Origin: a virus | Lineage: Duplodnaviria; Heunggongvirae; Uroviricota; Caudoviricetes | Length of the DNA stretch: 12,201 nucleotides | Reading direction: 5' to 3' (one strand) | IMG/VR virus record: IMGVR_UViG_2878528002_000001 | Location: 162,473-174,673 of that record | Shown here: positions 2 through 12,201 of the stretch, in pieces | Position numbering within the stretch: the first letter of the stretch is position 1 | Layout of the letters: each line of letters starts with the position of its first letter | Made by a program: the position numbers and the translations under genes | The notes under the pieces: model-generated | Told to the model about the DNA's origin: nothing | Database searches by the model: none | The model's input: the letters and a program-made list of their open reading frames with translations, nothing else

Positions 2-1603
2 TTTGAAAACCTTCCATATACGATTCATACAAGTTCTAAGTTTGAATTTGAAGGAGAATCAATAATCTTATTAGACGATTTTAATAACATCAATAATAAA
101 ATTATAAATGAATGTCATGAAATTGCCAAAAGAAATAAGTTATCATCAGAAGAACTTGAAAAGTTGATTGATGAAAAGACATATAAGACTCCGCGAAACC
201 TTGCGTCTGGTTCAGTGAGACAGCTCAATAGTGAAGTAACAAAAAATAGGCATGTTAAATTTATTGTATGGAAAGTTCCGTATGGGGTTGCTAGTTATAC
301 GAGTGGATTTAAACTTGCAAAACAAATGGGATTTGAGGTAGTGCCATATGTTACATACAATAGTAAAACTGATAATATCGATGAAAAAATTGATATTCTA
401 ACATCTATCGCTAAAGAAAAAGGATATCCTATTGATGGAATTGTATGTACATACAATGATGTAAAATTTGGCAAATCTCTTGGTATGACAAATCATCACG
501 CAAGAAACGCAATAGCATATAAATTTTACGATGAAGAGAATGTCACAACTCTTAAAACAGTTGAATGGTCAATGGGAAAAACTGGACAGCTTACTCCAGT
601 TGCAGTTTTTGAAGATACTGTAATTGACGGAACAACAGTAAATAGGGCATCATTACATAATGTTTCCGTATTCAAGTCTTTTGAACTAGGTGCAGGAGAC
701 GAAATAACTGTCTATAAATCAAATATGATTATACCGCAAATACGAGATAATCTATCCAGAAGTGGTACACTAACCATTCCAGATACATGTCCTATATGCG
801 GTGAACAAGCACAAGTAATTAAAGATAACGAATCTGAAGTTCTTATTTGTTCAAATCCAGATTGTCCAGGTAAATTACTTGGCAAAATTTCACACGCGGT
901 TTCGCGAAATGCCCTAAATATTGATGGATTATCTGATGCAACAATTGAAAAATTCATTTCTCTTGGATGGTTGAAATCCATTTCTGATATTTATTCCCTT
1001 AAAAAATATGAGAAAAATATGAAATCACTTTCTGGTTTTGGTAAAAAATCTGTAGATAAACTGCTTGCATCTATTGAAATTAGCCGCAAAACAGAGCTTA
1101 ACAGATTCATTAATGCATTATCAATTCCAATGATTGGCAATACAGCCAGTAAAGCAATTGCAAAATATTGCGATGGAAGTGTGGATAAATTCTTTACAGG
1201 AATGGATGAGAAATTTCCTTATATTAATATAGAAGGAATTGGCACACAGCGTACCGAAATTATGCATGATTTCTGGAATAATCATAAAGAAGAAGTCAAA
1301 TCATTTGCAAGAGAATTTGTTTTCGAAGAGACAGAGACAAGCAATACGGCATCAAATAACCTCGAGAATATGATTTTTGTTATTACTGGAAGTTTAAATG
1401 AATTTGAAAACCGTGATGCTGCAAAGTATGAGATTGAAAAACATGGTGGAAAAGTGTCTGGATCAATTTCAAGTCGGACAAATTTTCTCGTAAATAATGA
1501 TGTGAATTCTACATCAACTAAGAACACAAAAGCTAAAAACCTAGGAATACCCATTATCAATGAACCGGAGCTGATTTCGATGCTAAATTCTAATACTATT
1601 TGA
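2..1603 (+). CDS. ligA: NAD-dependent DNA ligase (5' end outside window)
   Basis: Frame is open from base 2 (FENLPYTIHTSSKFEFEGE...), so 164 is not the true start. Motifs: PRNLASGSVRQL, YPIDGIV, AIAYKF, WSMGKTGQLTPVAVF, RASLHN (OB fold), Zn finger CPIC...CSNPDC, HhH repeats (NIDGLS, GFGKKS, IEGIG), BRCT (FVITGSL...LGIPIINE). Confidence 0.96.
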   Translation, partial: FENLPYTIHTSSKFEFEGESIILLDDFNNINNKIINECHEIAKRNKLSSEELEKLIDEKTYKTPRNLASGSVRQLNSEVTKNRHVKFIVWKVPYGVASYTSGFKLAKQMGFEVVPYVTYNSKTDNIDEKIDILTSIAKEKGYPIDGIVCTYNDVKFGKSLGMTNHHARNAIAYKFYDEENVTTLKTVEWSMGKTGQLTPVAVFEDTVIDGTTVNRASLHNVSVFKSFELGAGDEITVYKSNMIIPQIRDNLSRSGTLTIPDTCPICGEQAQVIKDNESEVLICSNPDCPGKLLGKISHAVSRNALNIDGLSDATIEKFISLGWLKSISDIYSLKKYEKNMKSLSGFGKKSVDKLLASIEISRKTELNRFINALSIPMIGNTASKAIAKYCDGSVDKFFTGMDEKFPYINIEGIGTQRTEIMHDFWNNHKEEVKSFAREFVFEETETSNTASNNLENMIFVITGSLNEFENRDAAKYEIEKHGGKVSGSISSRTNFLVNNDVNSTSTKNTKAKNLGIPIINEPELISMLNSNTI

Positions 1604-1620
1604 AGGGAAAATTATATCAT

Positions 1621-1866
1621 ATGAAGTTAAAAATTCGATTAAAAACAGTAAATGACGCGAGTCTATTTACTGCGAAATGCAATGAATATAGAGATAATGA
1701 TGTTGACTATTTGGTAGGAAGGTACATCATCGATGGCAAATCATTAATGGGGATATTGAGTACGGGGCTTGATAAAGTATGTGAAGTAGATTTTCATTGC
1801 GATAATAAACAAATTTGTAACCAATTTCGCCAGGACATGAAACTTTGGATTGCGGAGGATAAATAG
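1621..1866 (+). CDS. HPr-family protein lacking the His15 phospho-site but keeping the Ser46 motif (81 aa)
   Basis: GRYIIDGKSLMGILS matches the HPr regulatory-serine motif (DAKSIMG). No HARP/His in the N-terminal part. ATG 1621 chosen over TTG 1600. Confidence 0.8.
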   Translation: MKLKIRLKTVNDASLFTAKCNEYRDNDVDYLVGRYIIDGKSLMGILSTGLDKVCEVDFHCDNKQICNQFRQDMKLWIAEDK

Positions 1867-1867
1867 T

Positions 1868-2098
1868 ATGACCATCGAAGATGAATATTATGTTCTTATA
1901 ATACTTAATACGAAAGAAAAAGGTATGTACAGCACTTATATCCGTGATAAAACAATGTTTTGTTCACCCAAAGGAGTTACCGAGGATATACGCCAGGCAC
2001 TAAAATTCGGAAGTATTATGGCTGCACGACTTTATAAGGGAATGAAAAAACTGGAAGGCTTTATTCCTTTGTATGTCAAAAACACAATTACATTTTAG
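1868..2098 (+). CDS. Hypothetical protein (76 aa)
   Basis: GGAGG at 1854-1858 upstream of ATG 1868; fills the gap between the HPr-like gene and thyA; no recognisable motif. Confidence 0.7.
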   Translation: MTIEDEYYVLIILNTKEKGMYSTYIRDKTMFCSPKGVTEDIRQALKFGSIMAARLYKGMKKLEGFIPLYVKNTITF

Positions 2099-2108
2099 GA
2101 GAACTTAT

Positions 2109-2978
2109 ATGACAAGAGCCGATTTAAGATTAATACAGGATATTCGAAATATCATGAACAACGGGACAATGGATGAGAATCCTCGTCCCCGTTATAGTGA
2201 CGGAACACCCGCGCATACAAAATTTGTGAATCATGTTGTAAGAACATATGATTTAAGTAAAGAATTTCCGATTTGTTCACTACGTCCGATTGCTTGGAAA
2301 ACGGCAATCAAAGAGATTTTCTGGATTTACAAAGATGCCAGTAACTCATTGGACGTTCTACGTAACAAATACAATATTCATTACTGGGATGACTGGGAAT
2401 CAGTAATGATACCAGAAACGATTGGCATTCGCTACGGTGCCACAGTAAAAAAATATGATTTATTAAATAAACTTATTACGGATATTAAAAAAAATCCATA
2501 TGGACGCCGCCATATCATAAGTCTGTGGCAGGAAAACGATTTTGATGAATCAGATGGACTCGCACCATGTGCATTCCTTACTATTTGGAATGTCAGAGGT
2601 GAATATCTTGACATGTGCTTAATCCAGAGAAGTGGCGATATGCTTACAGCTTCCGGAGCTGGCGGAATAAATGAAGTGCAGTACGCATGTTTGCAGATGA
2701 TGGTTGCGAAAGCGACTGGATATAAACCTGGTAAATTCACACACTTCGTGGCGAACGAACAGATTTACACACGTCACTTTGATGCTGCGAATGAGCTACT
2801 TCGTCGAGCATCAGAACAGAAAATTGAATCAAATAGCCAGTATGATTACGAATTCGAACCAGTCAAAATGAATTTCAATCCTAAATCTGATAATTTCTAT
2901 GATTTCTCAATCGAAGATTTTTCCCTTGAAAATTATAATCCGATTAAACCACAGATAAAACTTGAATTAGGCATTTAG
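2109..2978 (+). CDS. thyA: Thymidylate synthase (ThyA; Bacillus subtilis ThyA / phi3T-like branch)
   Basis: DGTPAHT, AWKTAIKE, HYWDDW, YGRRHI, catalytic LAPC, QRSGD, N(EV)QY, IYTRH, C-terminal DFYDFSIEDF. SD AGGAG 2097-2101 supports ATG 2109 rather than 2073. Confidence 0.95.
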   Translation: MTRADLRLIQDIRNIMNNGTMDENPRPRYSDGTPAHTKFVNHVVRTYDLSKEFPICSLRPIAWKTAIKEIFWIYKDASNSLDVLRNKYNIHYWDDWESVMIPETIGIRYGATVKKYDLLNKLITDIKKNPYGRRHIISLWQENDFDESDGLAPCAFLTIWNVRGEYLDMCLIQRSGDMLTASGAGGINEVQYACLQMMVAKATGYKPGKFTHFVANEQIYTRHFDAANELLRRASEQKIESNSQYDYEFEPVKMNFNPKSDNFYDFSIEDFSLENYNPIKPQIKLELGI

Positions 2979-3002
2979 TTTTATAAGAACGGAGAAAATA
3001 TA

Positions 3003-4283
3003 ATGAAAACAAATATCTTTATACCAACAAAAATAAATGTAGGATTCCAAAAACGAAAAGATACTTATACAAGTAAATTAGCTTATGTAATCTATTTTGA
3101 TGAAAAAGGTAAATTACGAAAAGAAACCTCATGGCAAGGTTGGAGAGATGAAGGTATTCCAAACGAAATCTACGATAATGAGCCAATGGAAGGATTTGTA
3201 TTAAATAAGAAGGTTGGTGGAGATAGATATGGTTGGAATCCCAGACAGACATATACCAGAGTATATGACCCTAGAGGATTCGAGTTTGAAATTACAATTC
3301 CAAATCTGTTGTGGATTTTAGAAAATTGTAACTGTATCAAAGGTAAAGGACTTGAAGGTGAATTTGTTTATGGTTGGGATGGTAAAGAATTAGTTCTTGT
3401 ACCTGTAGAATCCTCGGACTATAAAGAAATTCAGGAAAAGAATAAAGTCATTCATAATAATACATTTATTAAAGCAAGAGATTTAATCATTGGTGCTACA
3501 TATGAGGATTTGAATGGTAATCAATATGTATATATGGGAAAATCAAAGCCTTGGAAAGATCAGTCAAATTATTACCATGAAAGTCATGGTTACTATTATA
3601 GTAACAACAGAAAAGAAGGATATGAATATCCGCTTGATGATACATGGTTAATCAGTAAATGTCGAAGTAGTTATTATAATCAAAACCTTACTTACTATAG
3701 AAGTATTCAAGAAGAAAAGAATGAATTTTTCTTTATTCTTCTTGGAAATCCTAGTGCTGAATATAGTTGGGACAGAGAAAATAGAGTAACACATATGAAA
3801 ACAATTACAAGAAAGTTCACCCATATGGTTCTTGAAAAAAGACCAGATTATCCAGATATGGTTAATCTGTTATATAGCAATGCTGAATATTGTCAAGAAG
3901 ATTTTGAAGCAGATAAGCTTATTGATTTACCATACGATATATTTGTTGCTATGGCACAAGAAACCATTGAAAAGTGTCTTAAACATAATTGGCACGGTAA
4001 TGATTTTGTAGTTGGTAAAGAAAAAGATAAGCTTCTTGGTAATATAAAAGTATATTATGAAAAAGAGAGTGGTAAATGGTATATCATGGATACCATTATT
4101 GAAACCTATGAGGAAAAGAAATGGTTCTCTAGTGAAATGGAAACAAAAACAAGGGAACAACAGGTTAAAAAATATTTTGATAATTTAGAAGAATGTTATC
4201 AGTATATTCATCCTATCTATGGAGAACATTATTTAAAAAATGGTTATCTGGAAGGGAGATTTTATTATGGCACAGAAAAATGA
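3003..4283 (+). CDS. Conserved-looking phage hypothetical protein (426 aa)
   Basis: GGAG SD 8 nt before ATG. The N-terminal ~145 aa is rich in W/G/Y/F motif-like blocks (YVIYFDEKGKLRKETSW, EGFVLNKKVGG, RVYDPRGFEFEIT, GKGLEGEFVYGWDG) that I recall from large-phage hypotheticals. No function assignable. Confidence 0.85.
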   Translation: MKTNIFIPTKINVGFQKRKDTYTSKLAYVIYFDEKGKLRKETSWQGWRDEGIPNEIYDNEPMEGFVLNKKVGGDRYGWNPRQTYTRVYDPRGFEFEITIPNLLWILENCNCIKGKGLEGEFVYGWDGKELVLVPVESSDYKEIQEKNKVIHNNTFIKARDLIIGATYEDLNGNQYVYMGKSKPWKDQSNYYHESHGYYYSNNRKEGYEYPLDDTWLISKCRSSYYNQNLTYYRSIQEEKNEFFFILLGNPSAEYSWDRENRVTHMKTITRKFTHMVLEKRPDYPDMVNLLYSNAEYCQEDFEADKLIDLPYDIFVAMAQETIEKCLKHNWHGNDFVVGKEKDKLLGNIKVYYEKESGKWYIMDTIIETYEEKKWFSSEMETKTREQQVKKYFDNLEECYQYIHPIYGEHYLKNGYLEGRFYYGTEK

Positions 4284-4683
4284 TGAAAGAATTATGCAGT
4301 TAAAGAAAACTATTGAAGAAAAAAGACAGGAGCTTGCATCAAAACCAACAAGATTCAATCCAATTACTAATTGTTTATTAGTATTGGATAAGGTTACTTA
4401 CAATTTACATATTGATTCAAGCGAAATGTTGTTAATTAAACTTAATGCACTTTTAATATCTGCAAAAGATTTAGAAATTGACACTTCTACATTAATGATT
4501 TCGGGTAGCTCACTTGATGACTGGATTGCTGATGTAAAAGCAAATCTTGAAGTACAGAGATACAAGGCTGAGAAAAAGAAATTAGATATGTTAGAAAAAC
4601 AACTTACGGCATTGTTGTCTGATGATAAACAAACAGAGCTTCAAATTGATAGTTTGGAAGAATTATTAAAAGATTCTGAATAA
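4267..4683 (+). CDS. Helical/coiled-coil hypothetical protein (138 aa)
   Basis: GGGAG SD at 4254-4258 supports ATG 4267; overlaps the previous gene by 17 nt; heptad-like Leu/charged pattern at both ends. Confidence 0.82.
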   Translation: MAQKNDERIMQLKKTIEEKRQELASKPTRFNPITNCLLVLDKVTYNLHIDSSEMLLIKLNALLISAKDLEIDTSTLMISGSSLDDWIADVKANLEVQRYKAEKKKLDMLEKQLTALLSDDKQTELQIDSLEELLKDSE

Positions 4684-4688
4684 GGAGT

Positions 4689-5258
4689 GTGATTATTATA
4701 CATACAGTATATTGTGTATTAGGAAGAACATCTTCGGGTAAATCAACCATTACCCAAAAAGCAGCGAACAATCTGAATATGAAAGTCTTAAAATCATATA
4801 CTACTCGGCAAAGGAGAGAGAATGAAACAGATGAGAATTGTGATCATATATTTATCTCTTCCAATGAAGTAGAAAAATATCGTAATGATATGATTGCTTA
4901 TACGGAACGTGTAGGTTATTGCAGCTTTGCAACGAAACAACAACTCTTGGATAATGATTTCTACATTATCAATCCCTCTGGATATTTTGAATTAAAGCTG
5001 AAAACTAAGAACATGGATGTTGAACTTATTCCAATATATATCACGGTACCTTACCGAACATTAGAGAAACGTGCACGAAATCGTGGTGAATTTAATACAT
5101 GGAGAGAGAATTATATCAAAGAGAGCGAAGAATTTACGGATTTTGAAAAATCAAATCTTATCGATTATCGAATCTTAAATGATGGAGATTTGGAATTTTC
5201 TGTGAATAAACTCATCAATATAATTCGAAAGGATAAACAAATAGATGAAAAGAAATGA
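4689..5258 (+). CDS. gmk: Guanylate-kinase-like nucleoside monophosphate kinase
   Basis: P-loop GRTSSGKST, Gmk-type SYTTRQRRENE...DHIF, LID region LEKRARNRG, C-terminal RILNDGDL. Exact start and substrate are uncertain. Confidence 0.85.
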   Translation: MIIIHTVYCVLGRTSSGKSTITQKAANNLNMKVLKSYTTRQRRENETDENCDHIFISSNEVEKYRNDMIAYTERVGYCSFATKQQLLDNDFYIINPSGYFELKLKTKNMDVELIPIYITVPYRTLEKRARNRGEFNTWRENYIKESEEFTDFEKSNLIDYRILNDGDLEFSVNKLINIIRKDKQIDEKK

Positions 5259-5808
5259 TATTAAAACGATTTATTGTGACCTGGACGGAGTTGTTTTTGA
5301 TACGATTGCTGCAATCGTAAACCTATATAACGAAGACTATAAATATTATAAAGATTACAAACTGGTACATTGGTACGATATCGAATCATGGAATTTTGAA
5401 GAATGCATATGTGCTACATATACTGATATTAATAATTATTTCAATCAGCCACGATTTTTCGATGAACTGGAATATATGCCATTTGCAGATGTTGTAATTC
5501 CAAAACTTGCAGAACATTACAAAATTGTTTTTGTGAGCCACGGACAACAGCCAAACCTGGTGCAGAAAAAGGAATTACTCAGAGGTATCTTCCCGTTCGC
5601 AAAATTCATCGGAGTTAATTGGAATGAATATAAAGATAAATCCCATATCGATATGAGTGATGGTATCTTTATCGATGATTCAGCGAAAAATCTGATTACT
5701 TCTAATGCAGAAGAATGTATCTGCTTTGGCGACGAATATGAATGGAATGAAAAATGGAATGGTAAACGTATCTCAAATTGGTGCGATTTGGAGAAATATC
5801 TATTATAG
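5245..5808 (+). CDS. HAD-family 5'(3')-deoxyribonucleotidase (NT5C-like)
   Basis: HAD motif I IYCDLDGVVFD, motif II FVS, motif III K (KDKS), motif IV IFIDD; FFDELEYMP typical of NT5C-type enzymes. Confidence 0.85.
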   Translation: MKRNDIKTIYCDLDGVVFDTIAAIVNLYNEDYKYYKDYKLVHWYDIESWNFEECICATYTDINNYFNQPRFFDELEYMPFADVVIPKLAEHYKIVFVSHGQQPNLVQKKELLRGIFPFAKFIGVNWNEYKDKSHIDMSDGIFIDDSAKNLITSNAEECICFGDEYEWNEKWNGKRISNWCDLEKYLL

Positions 5809-5828
5809 GAAGGAAGAATTTTTAAAAC

Positions 5829-6017
5829 GTGATTTCAACAAGTGGAGAGTTGATGAGGACATTAAATCGTATTGGGGACGATTTTATTACAGTTGAGTTA
5901 TTCGGGCAAGAGTATGTTATCGACTGTGTTGCACATAGAAAAAATTACACGGATAGTCCGTGTTCACATATAACACTAAAATGTCGCAGCGGAGGAGAGG
6001 GTGAAATTAAGAGATGA
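5829..6017 (+). CDS. Hypothetical protein (62 aa)
   Basis: GTG start after a purine-rich AGGAAGG (long spacing); stop overlaps the next ATG (ATGA). Confidence 0.6.
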   Translation: MISTSGELMRTLNRIGDDFITVELFGQEYVIDCVAHRKNYTDSPCSHITLKCRSGGEGEIKR

Positions 6018-6181
6018 CTGAGTTAAAAGCGGTAGAAATTTTTACAAATGACGAGAAAAAACTTCTTATAGAAGCAATTTGTGATAAGCAAATTAGAAAA
6101 ATTGTCAAAGATCCGGACGCATATAATAGCCAGAAATACATGGAATTAGAGGCGTTGAAAATAAAAATTAAAGACATGTAA
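6014..6181 (+). CDS. Hypothetical protein (55 aa), not in ORF track
   Basis: Hand translation MTELKAVEIFTNDEKKLLIEAICDKQIRKIVKDPDAYNSQKYMELEALKIKIKDM*; ATGA coupling with upstream gene; GGAGG/GAGGGTG upstream; exactly fills an otherwise empty gap. Confidence 0.72.
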   Translation: MTELKAVEIFTNDEKKLLIEAICDKQIRKIVKDPDAYNSQKYMELEALKIKIKDM

Positions 6182-6210
6182 TGGAGAATTATATATTGGA
6201 GGTAATTTAT

Positions 6211-6378
6211 ATGGATGTGTTGATTGGATTCGTGGGCGGTATCTTAATCGGATCAATTATCGGAATTTTTATCGCTGGGTTATTATTTTCGGCAGAAGAT
6301 AAAGATAAAGATGACGAAGAACAAGAGAAATGGATTCGGGAATATAATTCTAGGAGGAAAAAGAATGAATGTAAATGA
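6211..6378 (+). CDS. Small single-pass membrane protein (55 aa)
   Basis: GGAGGT SD 6198-6203 before ATG 6211; N-terminal hydrophobic helix VLIGFVGGILIGSIIGIFIAGLLF with GxxxG repeats, then an acidic and a basic tail. Confidence 0.75.
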   Translation: MDVLIGFVGGILIGSIIGIFIAGLLFSAEDKDKDDEEQEKWIREYNSRRKKNECK

Positions 6379-8644
6379 ATGGTTAAATGAAAATACTCTA
6401 GGAATTGATATTTGGAGAAACAAATATCAGTATAACAATGAATCTTTTGATGAGTGGATTCAAAGGGTTTCTGGCGGTAATAAAGACATTGCAAAATTAA
6501 TTAAAGAAAAAAAATTTCTATTCGGAGGAAGAATTCTTGCCAATAGAGGACTTGAAAATGAAGGCAGAAAGATTAGCTTGTCTAATTGTTATGTAATTGC
6601 ACCTCCGGAAGATAATATTGAGAGTATTTTTGATTGTGCAAAAAAATTAGCACGTACATATAGTTACGGTGGCGGATGCGGCGTAGATATTAGCAAACTC
6701 TCTCCAAGAGGGGCGAAAGTAAATAATGCCGCTAAAGAAACATCTGGCTCTGTTTCGTTTATGGATTTGTACTCAATGGTAACAGGTTTGATCGGACAAG
6801 CCGGAAGGCGTGGGGCATTAATGCTTAGTATTTCATGTGAACATCCAGACCTTGAAGAATTTATAGAAATTAAATCAGATCTTAATCGTATAACTAAAGC
6901 CAATATTTCAATTCGAATTACTGATAAGTTTATGGCAGCCGTAAAAAACAAACAGCCATTTGAATTATCTTTTACAAGACTTGAAACCGGAGAAACAATC
7001 ACAAAAACGATTGATGCATATTCTATGTTTCATAAAATGTGTGAAATGAACTGGGACTACGCAGAACCAGGAATGCTTTTCTGGGATAGAATTAATAATT
7101 GGAATTTACTCAGTTGTGACGATGATTTTGAATATGCAGGAACAAATCCTTGTGCAGAAGAACCTCTTCCAGCCGGAGGATCATGCTTACTTGGTAGTAT
7201 TAACTTATCTGAATTTGTTAAAGAAGATAAGCAGTTTGATTTTGAATCATTCAAGGACTGTGTAGATAAATCCGTAATTGCTTTAAACGAAGTATTAGAC
7301 GAAGGATTACCACTTCATCCATTAAAAGAACAAAGGGAATCTGTTTATAATTGGAGACAGATTGGGTTAGGCATTTTTGGACTTGCTGATATGTTAATTA
7401 AAATAGGAATTACATATGGAAGTAACGAATCTATAGAATTATGTGACCTTATTGGTCACGTAATGGCAGATCAAGCAATTAAAACATCAGCATTACTCGC
7501 AAAAAAAGAATCCCCATATCCAATGTATAAACCAGAATGCATTGAACAGTCTGCATTTTATAGTAAAAATGCATTGGGAGAAACCAAAACTCTCGTTGAA
7601 TCTTTTGGATTACGAAATTCTCAACTTTTAACAATTGCACCAACTGGAAGTTTATCTACAATGCTTGGAGTTTCCGGAGGGATTGAACCAGTTTTTGCAA
7701 ATTATTACACAAGGAAGACAGAATCCCTTAAAGGGCATGATGAATATTATAAGGTTTATACTCCAATTGTAGAAGAGTATATGACAAAAAATAATATTTC
7801 TGATGATACAGAATTACCAGAATTCTTTATTACAGCACAAAATTTGAATTACCATAATAGAATTTCTATGCAAGGCATTTGGCAATCACATATTGATGCT
7901 TCAATTAGTTCTACTGTAAATCTTCCAGAATCAGCAACGATTGCCGATGTTGAAAATTTATATATGGAAGCATGGGAAAATGGATTAAAAGGTGTCACCA
8001 TTTTTAGAGACGGATGTAAGAGACTCGGCATTTTAACCACAAATGACAAAAAAGAAAAAGTAGAAGAAAAGTCTTCTAATAACAAAATCAGTGAATCTGA
8101 TTTGCCACGCGGATATATCATTACGGCAGATGATAACGTAGTTGGATTAAAACGTAAAATCATGTCTGGATGTGGAAGTTTACATGTTGTTGCAATGTTT
8201 GACCCTGTATCTGGGGAGTTACTTGAAACGTATCTTTCTAAAGGATCAACAGGAGGATGTCAGTCAAATCTTGCTGCCGTTTCACGTCTTATCTCGCTTG
8301 CCGCACGAGCTGGAGTTGATGTGTACACCATTGCTGATCAGCTCCAAAGTTGTACTGCGTGTCCTTCATATGTTGGAAGAACCATGACAAAACACGATAC
8401 AAGTAGAGGTAAATGTTGCCCGGACGCTGTTGCTAATGCATTAATTGACATGTACAGAGAAATGCAAAAAAACATCAATGATGAAGAAGATATTACTACT
8501 CAGGCAAAAAAAATGACACATAAAACCAGTTCTAATAAGAAAAACATTAAAACTAAAAATCCATGTCCTGTATGTGGAGAAGAGCTGATTTTTGAAGGTG
8601 GTTGTAATGTTTGCAAATCATGCGGTTGGAGCAAGTGTGACTGA
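6365..8644 (+). CDS. nrdJ: Class II adenosylcobalamin-dependent ribonucleotide reductase (759 aa)
   Basis: SD AGGAGG 6352-6357 supports ATG 6365. SNCYV, GGGCG, TNPCAEEPL (N-C-E active site), CLLGSINL, IAPTGSLS, SGGIEP, SISSTVN. KGVTIFRDG lacks the class I Tyr-Tyr pair and no beta subunit is adjacent. Cys-rich C-terminal domain plus Zn ribbon. Confidence 0.93.
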   Translation: MNVNEWLNENTLGIDIWRNKYQYNNESFDEWIQRVSGGNKDIAKLIKEKKFLFGGRILANRGLENEGRKISLSNCYVIAPPEDNIESIFDCAKKLARTYSYGGGCGVDISKLSPRGAKVNNAAKETSGSVSFMDLYSMVTGLIGQAGRRGALMLSISCEHPDLEEFIEIKSDLNRITKANISIRITDKFMAAVKNKQPFELSFTRLETGETITKTIDAYSMFHKMCEMNWDYAEPGMLFWDRINNWNLLSCDDDFEYAGTNPCAEEPLPAGGSCLLGSINLSEFVKEDKQFDFESFKDCVDKSVIALNEVLDEGLPLHPLKEQRESVYNWRQIGLGIFGLADMLIKIGITYGSNESIELCDLIGHVMADQAIKTSALLAKKESPYPMYKPECIEQSAFYSKNALGETKTLVESFGLRNSQLLTIAPTGSLSTMLGVSGGIEPVFANYYTRKTESLKGHDEYYKVYTPIVEEYMTKNNISDDTELPEFFITAQNLNYHNRISMQGIWQSHIDASISSTVNLPESATIADVENLYMEAWENGLKGVTIFRDGCKRLGILTTNDKKEKVEEKSSNNKISESDLPRGYIITADDNVVGLKRKIMSGCGSLHVVAMFDPVSGELLETYLSKGSTGGCQSNLAAVSRLISLAARAGVDVYTIADQLQSCTACPSYVGRTMTKHDTSRGKCCPDAVANALIDMYREMQKNINDEEDITTQAKKMTHKTSSNKKNIKTKNPCPVCGEELIFEGGCNVCKSCGWSKCD

Positions 8645-8659
8645 TTGTAATTAATGAAA

Positions 8660-8686
8660 ACGGAGAGTTATTCTTTAGCTCTCCGT
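8660..8686. terminator. Stem-loop after nrdJ (terminator or mRNA-stabilising hairpin)
   Basis: ACGGAGAGTTA-ttctt-TAGCTCTCCGT: 11-bp stem with one G-U. No U-tract on + (AATTAAAA follows); TTTCATT follows on the minus strand. Confidence 0.55.
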
Positions 8687-8708
8687 AATTAAAAGGAGCG
8701 AATAAAAT

Positions 8709-9032
8709 ATGAAAAATTTATCACCTAAAACTTATATTGGCAATGAAAATATGTCCGAAAAAGCATATACGAAAGCCGGATTTTACTCAAAATCCAATAC
8801 ATATGACATGTCATTTTACCTCTATAAAGATATTGTAAAAGCCTCAATTTCAATCGACAAAGAAGATTTCGAAATGTCCGTAGATGTCACGCACAATGAT
8901 AATATGTTCGCTCCATTTTATAATCCAGATGATCGTCATAATAACATGGTTTATGAGAAATCCGTAAAAGAATATAACAGACAAATGGATGCATTGGTCA
9001 AAAAAGGAGTGCTTATTTGTGAAAGTGATTAA
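8709..9032 (+). CDS. Hypothetical protein (107 aa)
   Basis: AAGGAG SD 8693-8698; ATG 8709; no reliable motif. Confidence 0.78.
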   Translation: MKNLSPKTYIGNENMSEKAYTKAGFYSKSNTYDMSFYLYKDIVKASISIDKEDFEMSVDVTHNDNMFAPFYNPDDRHNNMVYEKSVKEYNRQMDALVKKGVLICESD

Positions 9033-9288
9033 CCGTGGAGATAAGCTTTTCTGGGCGCGAATTGTACCCTGTTGTGGAATCTATGAAGTCCATGATTTGC
9101 ATGTCAGAACAGTCGGAAAAGACTATTATGTCGGCGTAGATAAACACGATAAACATACATATTTACTAGGATTCAATACACTTGATGACGTTGTTTTCGA
9201 AGACAGAAAACAAGCTTTGAGCAAAGTTCATGCCGCTGAAAAGAATAAAATTGAGGTGGATTCCGATACATATTATGAAGAATATTGA
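9019..9288 (+). CDS. Hypothetical protein (89 aa), predicted beta-rich
   Basis: AAAGGAG in 9003-9009 supports GTG 9019 rather than ATG 8989; alternating hydrophobic pattern suggests a small beta barrel. Confidence 0.75.
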   Translation: MKVINRGDKLFWARIVPCCGIYEVHDLHVRTVGKDYYVGVDKHDKHTYLLGFNTLDDVVFEDRKQALSKVHAAEKNKIEVDSDTYYEEY

Positions 9289-9299
9289 GGGTGTTTATT

Positions 9300-9434
9300 A
9301 TGAATAGATTACACATTATTATGGCATGGATTGTATGTGGCGCGGTTGCAATTTGTGGGTTATATACGAATAATCTTGAAGCTGTCGCGATGTTGGCACT
9401 ACCATTCATTATGTATATGACCCGCGTTAGATAG
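9300..9434 (+). CDS. Small hydrophobic protein, two possible TM helices (44 aa), not in ORF track
   Basis: GAGGGTG SD 9287-9293; hand translation MNRLHIIMAWIVCGAVAICGLYTNNLEAVAMLALPFIMYMTRVR*; fills the 9289-9446 gap. Confidence 0.7.
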   Translation: MNRLHIIMAWIVCGAVAICGLYTNNLEAVAMLALPFIMYMTRVR

Positions 9435-9446
9435 GAGGATAATTTA

Positions 9447-9674
9447 ATGGAAGTAGATTATAAGTTAGCCGTTAAAAATGGTATAGATTCTTTGATGAAA
9501 GGATTCGATGACACGGCTAATGACATATTACAAAAACATGGAATTTCTGAAGACATAGACACCTTTCTTAAAGATGCGAATGAGGCGGAATTAATCTGGT
9601 TTTGGAGCCATATTATACCTATTCGTAGTGATAAAGAGGGGAATTATTATATTGGAAATTATGAATATCAATAG
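9447..9674 (+). CDS. Hypothetical acidic protein (75 aa)
   Basis: AGGAGG SD 9433-9438 before ATG 9447. Confidence 0.75.
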   Translation: MEVDYKLAVKNGIDSLMKGFDDTANDILQKHGISEDIDTFLKDANEAELIWFWSHIIPIRSDKEGNYYIGNYEYQ

Positions 9675-9726
9675 AAGCAAAATAGGAAATCATAGACTTA
9701 TTAATAGTATCGAGGAGAATTGAATT

Positions 9727-10242
9727 ATGGCAAAAAGAGTAGCAAAATTTGAAAAAGTATCAAAGGAACAGTTTGTTAAAGATTGGCAGCATGAATTTAT
9801 GGGATCAGAAGAGTGGGCAGGGATGGTATATGATCGCATCAAATTACCACAGAGGGCAACAAAATTTTCTGCCGGATATGATTTCTTTTCACCACTTGAT
9901 TTCACATTAGAACCAGGCAAGACAATCAAAATTCCAACAGGAATCCGTTGTGGAATGAATATAGACTGGGTATTGCAATGCTATCCTCGCAGTGGGTTAG
10001 GATTTAAGTATAGAGAAATGCTTTCCAATACGGTCGGAATCATTGATGCCGATTATTACTACAGTGATAATGAGGGGCATATTTTTGCAAAGATTGTGAA
10101 TGCAGGTGATAAACCACTACATATTAAATCTGGAGATGGTTTTATACAAGGGATTTTTTTGGAATACGGAATTGTAGAGGATGACCATGTAGAAACGACT
10201 AGAAATGGTGGAGTTGGAAGTACGGATAAAAACAAAGGGTGA
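9727..10242 (+). CDS. dut: Trimeric dUTP diphosphatase
   Basis: All five dUTPase motifs: SAGYDF, PRSG, GIIDADYY, GDGFIQG, RNGGVGSTD; GAGGAG SD 9712-9717. Confidence 0.95.
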   Translation: MAKRVAKFEKVSKEQFVKDWQHEFMGSEEWAGMVYDRIKLPQRATKFSAGYDFFSPLDFTLEPGKTIKIPTGIRCGMNIDWVLQCYPRSGLGFKYREMLSNTVGIIDADYYYSDNEGHIFAKIVNAGDKPLHIKSGDGFIQGIFLEYGIVEDDHVETTRNGGVGSTDKNKG

Positions 10243-10461: not shown

Positions 10462-12201
10462 ATGGAGAATTCAGCAATAAATACACTTCCATTTTATAAT
10501 ACACCTCTTGATAGAAATAGCCCTAGGAATATGGTATTCTACGGAAGAGTATCTACTGAACACGAAGCACAACTTTCAGCTTTACAAAATCAAATACAAT
10601 GGTATGACGACCAATTAAAATCACATCCCAATTGGAATCTAGTTGAACGATATATTGACGAAGGAATTACTGGTACACAGGCAAAAAAACGTCCTGGATT
10701 CCTTAATATGATTGATGATGCGAAAAAAGGAAAATTCGATTTAATCGTAACAAGAGAAGTATGTCGTTTTGCACGAAACACAGTTGATACACTCATATAC
10801 ACCCGAGAATTAAAAAACAAATATAATATAGAAGTTTATTTTGTAGATGATAACATTTGGACTATGGACGGTGATGGCGAACTACGTCTTACTTTGATGG
10901 CAACATTAGCGCAGGAAGAAAGTAGAAAAACATCTGATCGAGTTAAAGCCGGGCAAAAAGTAAGTAGAGAAAACGGGGCGCTGTATGGTAATGGCAATAT
11001 TTTAGGATATGATCGAGTAGGAGATACTTATATAATAAACGAAGAACAAGCAGAAACAGTTAGAATGATATATGATATGTATCTAAACAAAGGATTAGGT
11101 TCTATGAAAATTGCAAAGGAGCTTTCTATACAGAAACGAAAAAATGCCAGTGGTAATATAAAGTGGAGTGCAGAGCGTGTTATGCGTGTACTAAAAAAAT
11201 CAACGTATGCTGGTATTATTGCTTACGGTCAATCGCATAGTAATAATTATTTGGAACAAAAAAGAATTAACAACTTGAATCGTGATACATATATGTATCA
11301 AAAAATAGATATTCCCGTTATTATCCCAAAAGAAGAATGGGACAAAGTGCAAGAAATCATCGCTAGTCGTACCCAAAAAATGGGTGATGACTTGCGTGGT
11401 AAAAAAGAAGTAAAAGAATTTTGGAGCAAAAAGCTTCTATGTAAATGTGGCAGCTCGTTTAGACGTAATAAATGGAGAACTAATAAAACAGGTGAAGAAG
11501 TGTTTGGTTATCAATGTCAACGTCAAATAAATTATGGAAGTAAACAGTTTAGAGAAAAGAACGGGCTAGATACTGAAGGATATTGTGATATCAGAATGGT
11601 TGCTGACTGGAAACTTGATATGATGGCAAAAATTATCATTGAGCAAATTTGGAAGAACAAAGGAGAATCTATCATATTGGCGTTAAAAATGATTGCTGAT
11701 AATTATGAAGAAGATGTTTCTCCTGTCAAAAAAAACAATAAAGAAATCGAACTCAAAATAGAAAAATTACAAAATCGCATGAAAAACTTAATCGAAATGA
11801 GAGCTGATGGAGAAATTACAAAAGAGGATTTTACAGAATTTAAAAATTCCATCAATGATCAGATATCTATCTTAAATTCTGAATTGGTTATAGAAGAAAT
11901 AGAATCTGATAAACCGGAATCCATAGAAAAGAAAATTGATACTATTCGTCAAATAATAGATGAATCTATAGATTTTTCACAGCCAAAACTACCAAGATAT
12001 ATTATTGATCGTTTTATTTCAAAGGTCGTTGTTCTTGATAATAACAAATTTAGATGGTATCTCACATTAGGAGATAACCCAGATGATGACATGTATATAG
12101 ATGCTCAAGTAGAAGGACGAAAAAACAACAGTTCAGTGCAAATATTAAGCAGTGAAGATAGCCTACTTACCTTCCATAGCAGCACAGGCAGCAATCGCTG
12201 A
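10462..12201 (+). CDS. Large serine recombinase (phage integrase), 579 aa
   Basis: Catalytic YGRVST (Ser31), YIDEGITGT, RPGF...KFDLIV, RFARN, AQEESRKTSDRV; recombinase domain (LGYD, YAG...YG); Zn ribbon LLCKCG...YQC...C; long coiled coil. Confidence 0.95.
   Translation: MENSAINTLPFYNTPLDRNSPRNMVFYGRVSTEHEAQLSALQNQIQWYDDQLKSHPNWNLVERYIDEGITGTQAKKRPGFLNMIDDAKKGKFDLIVTREVCRFARNTVDTLIYTRELKNKYNIEVYFVDDNIWTMDGDGELRLTLMATLAQEESRKTSDRVKAGQKVSRENGALYGNGNILGYDRVGDTYIINEEQAETVRMIYDMYLNKGLGSMKIAKELSIQKRKNASGNIKWSAERVMRVLKKSTYAGIIAYGQSHSNNYLEQKRINNLNRDTYMYQKIDIPVIIPKEEWDKVQEIIASRTQKMGDDLRGKKEVKEFWSKKLLCKCGSSFRRNKWRTNKTGEEVFGYQCQRQINYGSKQFREKNGLDTEGYCDIRMVADWKLDMMAKIIIEQIWKNKGESIILALKMIADNYEEDVSPVKKNNKEIELKIEKLQNRMKNLIEMRADGEITKEDFTEFKNSINDQISILNSELVIEEIESDKPESIEKKIDTIRQIIDESIDFSQPKLPRYIIDRFISKVVVLDNNKFRWYLTLGDNPDDDMYIDAQVEGRKNNSSVQILSSEDSLLTFHSSTGSNR
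12178..12201 (+). other. Putative attachment junction / ppdK-like 3' tail overlapping the integrase stop
   Basis: 12179-12201 is 14/23 G+C in an otherwise AT-rich window and reads GCA GCA CAG GCA GCA ATC GCT GA = AAQAAIA in another frame, like the PPDK C-terminus (..PIARLAAAQAA..). Only 7 codons visible. Confidence 0.55.

Follow-up and report, generated by a model that had tools for sequence, protein, structure and literature searches.

An attachment site inside the integrase gene of a 172-kb phage: integration into host ppdK probably exchanges the tails of a large serine recombinase and of PpdK

We analysed a stretch of 12,201 nucleotides (the window) that closes a 174,673-base IMG/VR provirus record (G000; Caudoviricetes) and ends with the gene of a large serine recombinase (LSR), the integrase of this phage. 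The attachment site of the phage lies inside the 3' part of its own integrase gene, and window positions 12159-12201 are attR, where a gut prophage of about 172 kb meets the DNA of its Blautia-type host on the right, having inserted into the 3' end of ppdK. The overall best explanation, in which we have high confidence, is that the phage site attP is placed within the integrase gene, that its core is shared with host ppdK, and that recombination with the bacterial site attB swaps the tails of both proteins. Because attP sits inside its gene, integration deletes a tail of 45-46 residues from the integrase. The features on which the argument turns are the following.

10462-12201, + strand: large serine recombinase (P0001), prophage form of 579 amino acids (aa), an open reading frame (ORF) with its translation, ending in ..TFHSSTGSNR and then TGA
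12159-12184: predicted P half-site of attP, kept at attR, with outer motif TAGCCTA at 12159-12165 (dyad scan)
12178-12198: core of 21 bp, identical in attL, attR, attB and the inferred attP, read as SSTGSNR in the integrase frame and as AAQAAIA in the ppdK frame
12185-12186: predicted central (crossover) dinucleotide CA, which opens the Gln codon of ppdK
12199-12201, + strand: TGA stop of the prophage-form integrase, the first host bases to the right of the core (gcT GAg in the ppdK frame)

The composition of the DNA changes abruptly at the end of the window, with 14 G+C among the 23 bases of 12179-12201 compared with 26-36% GC in 200-nt windows of the preceding 600 nt, and from 12179 an alternate frame reads AAQAAIA followed by GA-. 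An earlier note on this stretch, made from the letters alone, had pointed to both features and had proposed an attachment site of an element targeting the 3' end of ppdK, which would give the integrase two alternative C-termini and rewrite the end of PpdK. The comparisons described below bear out each of these proposals. The last 24 bases of the window are repeated, with 23 of 24 matching, at G000:C1:2595-2618 (E 4.5e-5 within the record). This second copy, attL, forms the in-frame 3' end of an open frame of 512 residues, which contains the PEP-utilizers and PEP-utilizers_C domains and terminates in ..SPFRVPIARLAAAQAAIAETKAK; the repeat is not a chance match. The ppdK body expected at the other end of the prophage is present there, and to the right of the attL core lies AT-rich phage DNA including a holin-like gene. 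The true element extends approximately from record position 2595 to 174670.

The same 579-aa integrase was found in 254 blocks of public assemblies, and host genes follow immediately on its right in 10 long contigs. The host bases after the core in those contigs are TGAGAAGAATGCATAA, which in the ppdK frame give ..AAQAAIAEKNA and a stop, followed by a strong terminator and host genes; past 12201 the host contig reads GAGAAGAATGCATAA. The empty attB, made of ppdK, the core and the same right flank with no phage, is present in four reference genomes (Ruminococcus sp. AF41-9, Blautia sp. MSJ-19 and two uncultured Blautia). It is also present in an isolate of the same species, in which the end of ppdK differs from that of the lysogen by 1 base over 522, and whose contig departs from the attL sequence (L002) at 1521, exactly past the core, into the host flank of the window. 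Two sets of raw reads (X21 and X22) contained nothing of the organism.

With attP, all four att forms were recovered. Five IMG/VR contigs of 72-180 kb belonging to a sister phage (integrase 82% identical) have the integrase gene mid-contig, with its frame open for 46 codons past the core; further contigs hold the gene of this sister phage in the attR form, and one contig holds its attL. The attP form of the window's own lineage is represented by P0274, a protein of 624 aa from the same 90%-identity cluster as P0001, whose frame continues for 45 codons past the core. Its contig (L036) matches the window at 97% up to 12198 and matches L002, the attL-side phage arm, at 91% from 1501, the first base of the core; the two arm matches overlap in the core, where there is one A/T difference. 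A search of IMG/VR with a 38-mer of the exact attP junction, built from the phage's own two arms, gave no match, and no close relative of the integrase gene was found among GenBank phages. The bases at 12199-12201 also follow the core in the empty attB, and attL and attP have AGA there. The earlier note had read the last integrase residues and the TGA as coming from the segment at the end of the window; this ending is correct, with the refinement that SSTGSNR belongs to the shared core and only the sequence from the TGA onward is host DNA.

The product of 10462-12201 is classified by domain order and fold as a phage-type LSR, and recombination activity is predicted for it. Pfam identified Resolvase (PF00239, E 2.9e-29, residues 25-173) and Recombinase (PF07508, E 8.5e-17). 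The catalytic serine is Ser31, within YGRVST, and is invariant in 44 homologues; the zinc-ribbon cysteines C326, C328, C351 and C374 are likewise invariant in the alignment, and the long helices at 381-501 in the model account for the coiled coil. Foldseek matched the integrases of SPbeta (E 2.5e-19), PhiC31 (E 2.4e-15) and Bxb1 (E 2.4e-11), as well as the LI integrase. This is the sole serine recombinase of the record.

Translation of attP shows what integration takes away. The attP form of 624-625 aa consists of a body with catalytic, recombinase, zinc-ribbon and coiled-coil parts, a disordered linker encoded by attP itself, and an end module of about 40 residues. Once attP and attB are joined, the body and linker at attR reach the host TGA at once, giving the 579-aa protein. 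After integration the DNA coding for the module stands 172 kb away at attL, behind ppdK, out of frame and with no start codon upstream, and is predicted to be silent in this lysogen; the terminator of the host's own ppdK now lies 3' of the integrase gene. Other prophage-form members of the same 90% cluster have 588, 590 and 594 aa, and because host ppdK tails differ, the prophage isoform varies in length with the strain of the host. Four prophage-form proteins of 588-594 aa (P0273, P0277, P0280 and P0283) end in ..STGSYRRKERLIAV.., which, judging from the protein tails, would fit a host ppdK ending in ..AIAERKD. In addition, in a 1.9-kb metagenome contig (L035:1730-1863, integrase 98% identical) the integrase frame crosses the core and the initial 10 codons of the phage arm before the sequence becomes unrelated, giving an ORF of 611 aa (P0002); the contig may be chimeric, or it may represent a variant arm or a second element.

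The removed tail has the marks of a conserved domain. Between the phage and its sister, the codon changes of the tail are 9 synonymous and 10 non-synonymous in the integrase frame, compared with 2-3 synonymous and 16 non-synonymous, plus stops, in the other frames, a pattern that points to purifying selection on the module. The pattern A..YR.....Y.R..QW is invariant across 28 tails with identity down to about 30%, and in the same alignment the last residues vary. AlphaFold, run on the C-terminal 118 residues with 36 sequences, gave a strand-helix-strand module with a predicted local distance difference test score (pLDDT) of 92-97. In the model of the 625-aa form, residues 565-585 have pLDDT below 50 and are the sole long low-confidence segment of the C-terminal half; they correspond to the attP-encoded linker ..SLLTFHSS... 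Alignment and model together argue that the removed piece is a real conserved domain. A further lead from the Atlas, DUF4368, was dropped, as its score of 0.77 was below chance level and hmmscan gave it no support.

A small domain on a flexible linker, with hydrophobic ends (..VEIGL, ..EVYISI), might also set the amount of integrase, acting as a degradation or stabilisation signal carried only by the free-genome form, in the manner of BPs-type systems, which remove C-terminal tags by means of attP (PMC4557955; 10.64898/2026.10.29.762952). We regard this as quite improbable: a degron would need less than a confidently folded unit of some 40 residues in which Tyr, Arg, Gln and Trp are invariant, and the last residues themselves are not conserved.

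To follow the module and the ppdK core among relatives, we used the 120 best homologues (55-98% identity). The module is carried by 35 of them, including some with only 58-64% identity. Twelve, counting P0001 and P0002, have tails that vary and stop just past the TGxY codons. The end is an antisense reading of the ppdK 3' end in at least 14, and in others the stretch ..YVQHR.. represents the third-frame reading of this ppdK core. At the DNA level, one relative (L032) is a phage-internal attP form whose +1 frame reads AAQAAILER and a stop, and another (L033), a small Rep+FtsK element, has the attR form with a host terminator behind it. In L043 the recombinase gene (3501-5336, + strand) overlaps ppdK (5261-7888, - strand) convergently by 76 nt. 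The clade of L043 (56-57% identity, 611 aa, abundant in gut assemblies) uses the same ppdK codons in opposite orientation, the last 25 or so codons of its recombinase being the antisense of the ppdK 3' end (..LIAACAAARRAIGTR..), and a third clade, that with ..YVQHR.., uses the remaining sense frame of the core. In gut Bacillota, unrelated elements thus seem to share the final conserved codons of ppdK as a hot spot of integration.

We also searched 1.84 billion cluster representatives with a profile of the module, which matched 337 of them at E up to 0.001. Among the best 150 of these matches, 33 are recombinases or fragments of them, and 89 have an N-terminal part that is not recombinase-like. 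Pfam analysis of 10 of those 89 found host-gene domains in six: ppdK (three), the FeoB_N G-domain, the membrane protein Cons_hypoth698 and an AraC-type regulator. Read from their ORFs, these proteins are probably attL-side junction chimeras and, if this reading holds, a cut just upstream of the module applies across several target genes. In some lineages (P0171, P0176, P0268 and P0156) the module is fused in frame, at attL, to a truncated host protein, namely PpdK, the FeoB G-domain, an AraC-type regulator or a Cons_hypoth698 membrane protein. Lysogens of this kind could produce the module as one part of a host-phage chimera. More distant LSRs have the module straight after the zinc-ribbon domain with no long linker, and the module would for that reason be older than the specificity for ppdK.

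These data bear on the possibility that the tail swap has no regulatory meaning, the module being state-neutral or dispensable and attP having settled in a tolerant linker since att sites adjoin int. Such an account, which we consider less likely than not but worth weighing, would fit the position of attP over the low-confidence linker and the direct attachment of the module to the zinc ribbon in distant LSRs. The prophage tails, which give proteins of 579, 588, 590 or 594 aa depending on the host, likewise suggest that the end of the short form is accidental. It is harder to reconcile with the strong conservation of the module and with the cut found upstream of it across targets (ppdK in two registers, feoB, an araC-type gene and a membrane-protein gene), and an important part that is always lost on integration is difficult to call neutral.

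As to the mechanism, the sequences show the rearrangement of the gene and the two forms of the protein, and what follows is proposed. The short form would still support excision, because within the same lineages lysogens are common and so are free genomes; if it is enough for excision, the module would therefore serve the phase of the circular genome. The likeliest role of the module, which we hold tentatively and by analogy with Mx8 IntP/IntX, is to favour attP x attB integration, the prophage enzyme being poor at this reaction, in which case the rearrangement of the gene would record the integration state. A stronger version makes the module a built-in state sensor of a large LSR clade, with only the full-length enzyme from the circular genome carrying out attP x attB integration and the form lacking the module committed to excision. 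The module might then be an extra DNA-binding or synapsis domain, and directionality would be set partly by rearrangement of the integrase gene and not only by a separate directionality factor; we consider this version unlikely.

The layout of the site itself was analysed with a dyad scan of three attPs: that inferred for the phage, that of the sister phage and that of a relative with 64% identity. The best centre is the same CA in all three, with 14-16 of 24 flanking positions complementary compared with about 6 by chance, and outer motifs TAGCCTA on the left and AGGCGA on the right. The attP thus appears to have the quasi-palindromic layout expected of a serine-integrase site, and crossover probably takes place at the CA of 12185-12186. 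The attP of about 50 bp encodes the integrase stretch ..SL....SSTGSNRRNKGE... The S/C and N/Y changes seen in the integrases of relatives correspond to GCA/GCT Ala codons that are silent in the ppdK frame, and for this reason the core-encoded piece of the integrase seems to evolve under the constraint of ppdK.

Several points weigh against the interpretation given above. The predicted crossover dinucleotide is placed by symmetry, and the one polymorphic position of the core (A/T in the sister phage) says nothing about the crossover, as attL and attR both have T. The presumed ability of the short form to excise is read from the coexistence of both forms. The module has no match in Pfam, the PDB or the Atlas: Pfam searches of 36 tails with E up to 10 returned scattered chance matches only, and fold searches with the C-terminal 118 residues gave a best E of 0.33 in Foldseek and a best Z of 4.6 in VIA, where the listed matches cover residues 1-80 only, mostly 2-59. 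Finally, the record holds two clear tyrosine-recombinase frames and one weak one (Pfam Phage_integrase, two above the cut-off), all more than 50 kb from either end.

G000:C1:51975-52550, - strand: tyrosine-recombinase frame
G000:C1:90474-91031, + strand: tyrosine-recombinase frame
G000:C1:72056-72400, - strand: tyrosine-recombinase frame

That one of these internal enzymes integrates the prophage, the core in the LSR gene being a coincidence, is scarcely credible to us even though two of the frames pass the Phage_integrase cut-off. They stand 50-90 kb from either junction, the attPs show a quasi-palindrome of the serine-integrase type, and the ppdK core recurs in LSR 3' ends across many lineages and types of element, among them the small Rep+FtsK element, near which there is no other recombinase. 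The internal tyrosine recombinases might serve in dimer resolution or inversion.

On the host side, the native PpdK tail ..AIAEKNA and stop becomes ..AIAETKAK and stop in the lysogen. The phage arm gives ppdK its new last codons, the stop and a terminator about 155 nt downstream (-27.6 kcal/mol, z-score -6.8), and terminators are present on both arms. Among other elements and hosts, the tail ILER is supplied by the element, and ANK and ERKD are found on the host side. A motif GTGTCC(A/C)A(A/G)C, of the GTGTCCAA type, is also common to the right-hand phage arm of attP and the right-hand host flank of attB. It lies 10-25 nt before a terminator hairpin, and the same holds for several Blautia species and the sister phage.

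L002:1671-1740: shared 3' motif
L003:11790-11850: shared 3' motif
L018:4855-4915: shared 3' motif

A diverged copy of the 3' untranslated region (UTR) of ppdK may be present on the phage arm; Rfam returned nothing above threshold in the ppdK 3' UTR or in the phage arm. The change from EKNA to ETKAK, the swapped terminator and the resemblance of the GTGTCCAA-type motif on the phage arm to the host 3' UTR could mean that the PpdK change is the main point, the phage rewriting the tail and 3' UTR to alter host metabolism. We find this very unlikely: only the last 3-4 residues differ past the conserved AAAQAAIA, different elements give different tails, and targets are usually repaired in this way, by a stop restored after a few residues, as described for the elements that insert in ppdK of Bacteroidota (PMC11005914). 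We infer that the change of the PpdK tail is a near-neutral repair and not a manipulation of the host.

Concerning the record and the rest of the window, the IMG/VR boundaries are misplaced, with about 2.6 kb of host ppdK included at the left (G000:C1:1-2594) and the right end cut exactly at the integrase stop. Upstream of the integrase, synteny with annotated contigs assigns the following region to nucleotide metabolism and replication.

2-10242: block with NAD-dependent DNA ligase, thymidylate synthase, NT5C-type nucleotidase, ribonucleotide reductase with a TSCPD domain, and dUTPase

In canonical large serine integrases attP lies outside the int ORF, and we know of no state-dependent isoform among them. 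SPbeta SprA, PhiC31, Bxb1 and A118/LI have the same domain order and fold as the integrase described here, but their short quasi-palindromic attP adjoins int. Literature searches with phrases for an attP inside a serine integrase gene found nothing, and the searchable text of the serine-recombinase and att survey of Durrant et al. (PMC10083194) makes no mention of att sites inside the recombinase gene.

The closest parallel in working is found in Mx8, where attP lies in the integrase coding sequence and integration gives a new 3' end and a different isoform, IntP/IntX (Tojo et al. 1996; Magrini et al. 1999, via PMC6070905). The Mx8 prophage isoform is reported to be active with modified specificity and not inactivated (PMC6070905). 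Both systems place attP within the integrase ORF and produce a new C-terminus by integration. They differ in that Mx8 Int is a tyrosine recombinase with a tRNA-linked attB and the enzyme described here is an LSR; here, moreover, the lost part is a conserved folded module common to hundreds of cluster representatives, and this DNA doubles as coding sequence for the end of a host protein. Being a serine recombinase, the phage integrase resembles the Mx8 type in its working and is not a member of it.

Among serine recombinases, the 3' end of the Dehalococcoides LSR gene dsiB always overlaps attL, and its authors suggested that DsiB is perhaps fully functional only from the circular element (McMurdie et al. 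2011, PMC3146451). The C-terminal portions of DsiB over the att region diverge in length and sequence, and the authors defined no conserved module past the crossover (PMC3146451). DsiB elements target ssrA and were seen only integrated, whereas here both forms were recovered and the lost tail is a conserved domain. The same host gene is used by PvCTn-like conjugative transposons of Bacteroidota, which insert in the 3' end of ppdK with imperfect direct repeats and regain a stop in a few residues (PMC11005914). The target codons A-A-Q-A-A-I are the same and the stop is regenerated near the native one, but the hosts are Bacteroidota, the elements are conjugative, and the 20-bp motif published for them does not agree base for base with the sequence described here. 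The searchable part of the paper states no integrase class and contains no report of attP inside the integrase gene (PMC11005914). In BPs/Brujita and the corynephage CyranoPS, attP lies in a phage regulatory gene, and integration shortens its product and alters its behaviour (PMC4557955; 10.64898/2026.10.29.762952). The analogy with BPs drawn in the earlier note holds in principle, but in BPs-type systems a repressor is truncated and the integrase is of the tyrosine type, whereas here the integrase itself is cut and no repressor stands at the junction.

New here are the four att forms of a 172-kb phage, the identification of the removed part as a conserved and confidently folded module, the spread of this module over several target genes, and the finding that related integrases read one and the same host core in three registers. 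The attP-in-own-gene layout is common to a large family of such integrases and has had literature mention in passing only. Serine integrases are leading tools of genome engineering, and their one-way action comes from att-dependent coiled-coil contacts together with a separate directionality factor. Gene callers and provirus boundary tools list the 579-aa form and many junction chimeras as separate proteins, and because of this, catalogues of integrases and att sites may hold truncated enzymes. When the published Bacteroidota cases are added, the ppdK hot spot spans two phyla. The long and short isoforms offer a natural pair ready for comparison and, if the proposal is true, the loss of a domain by integration would add a second, genetic layer of control on serine integrases.

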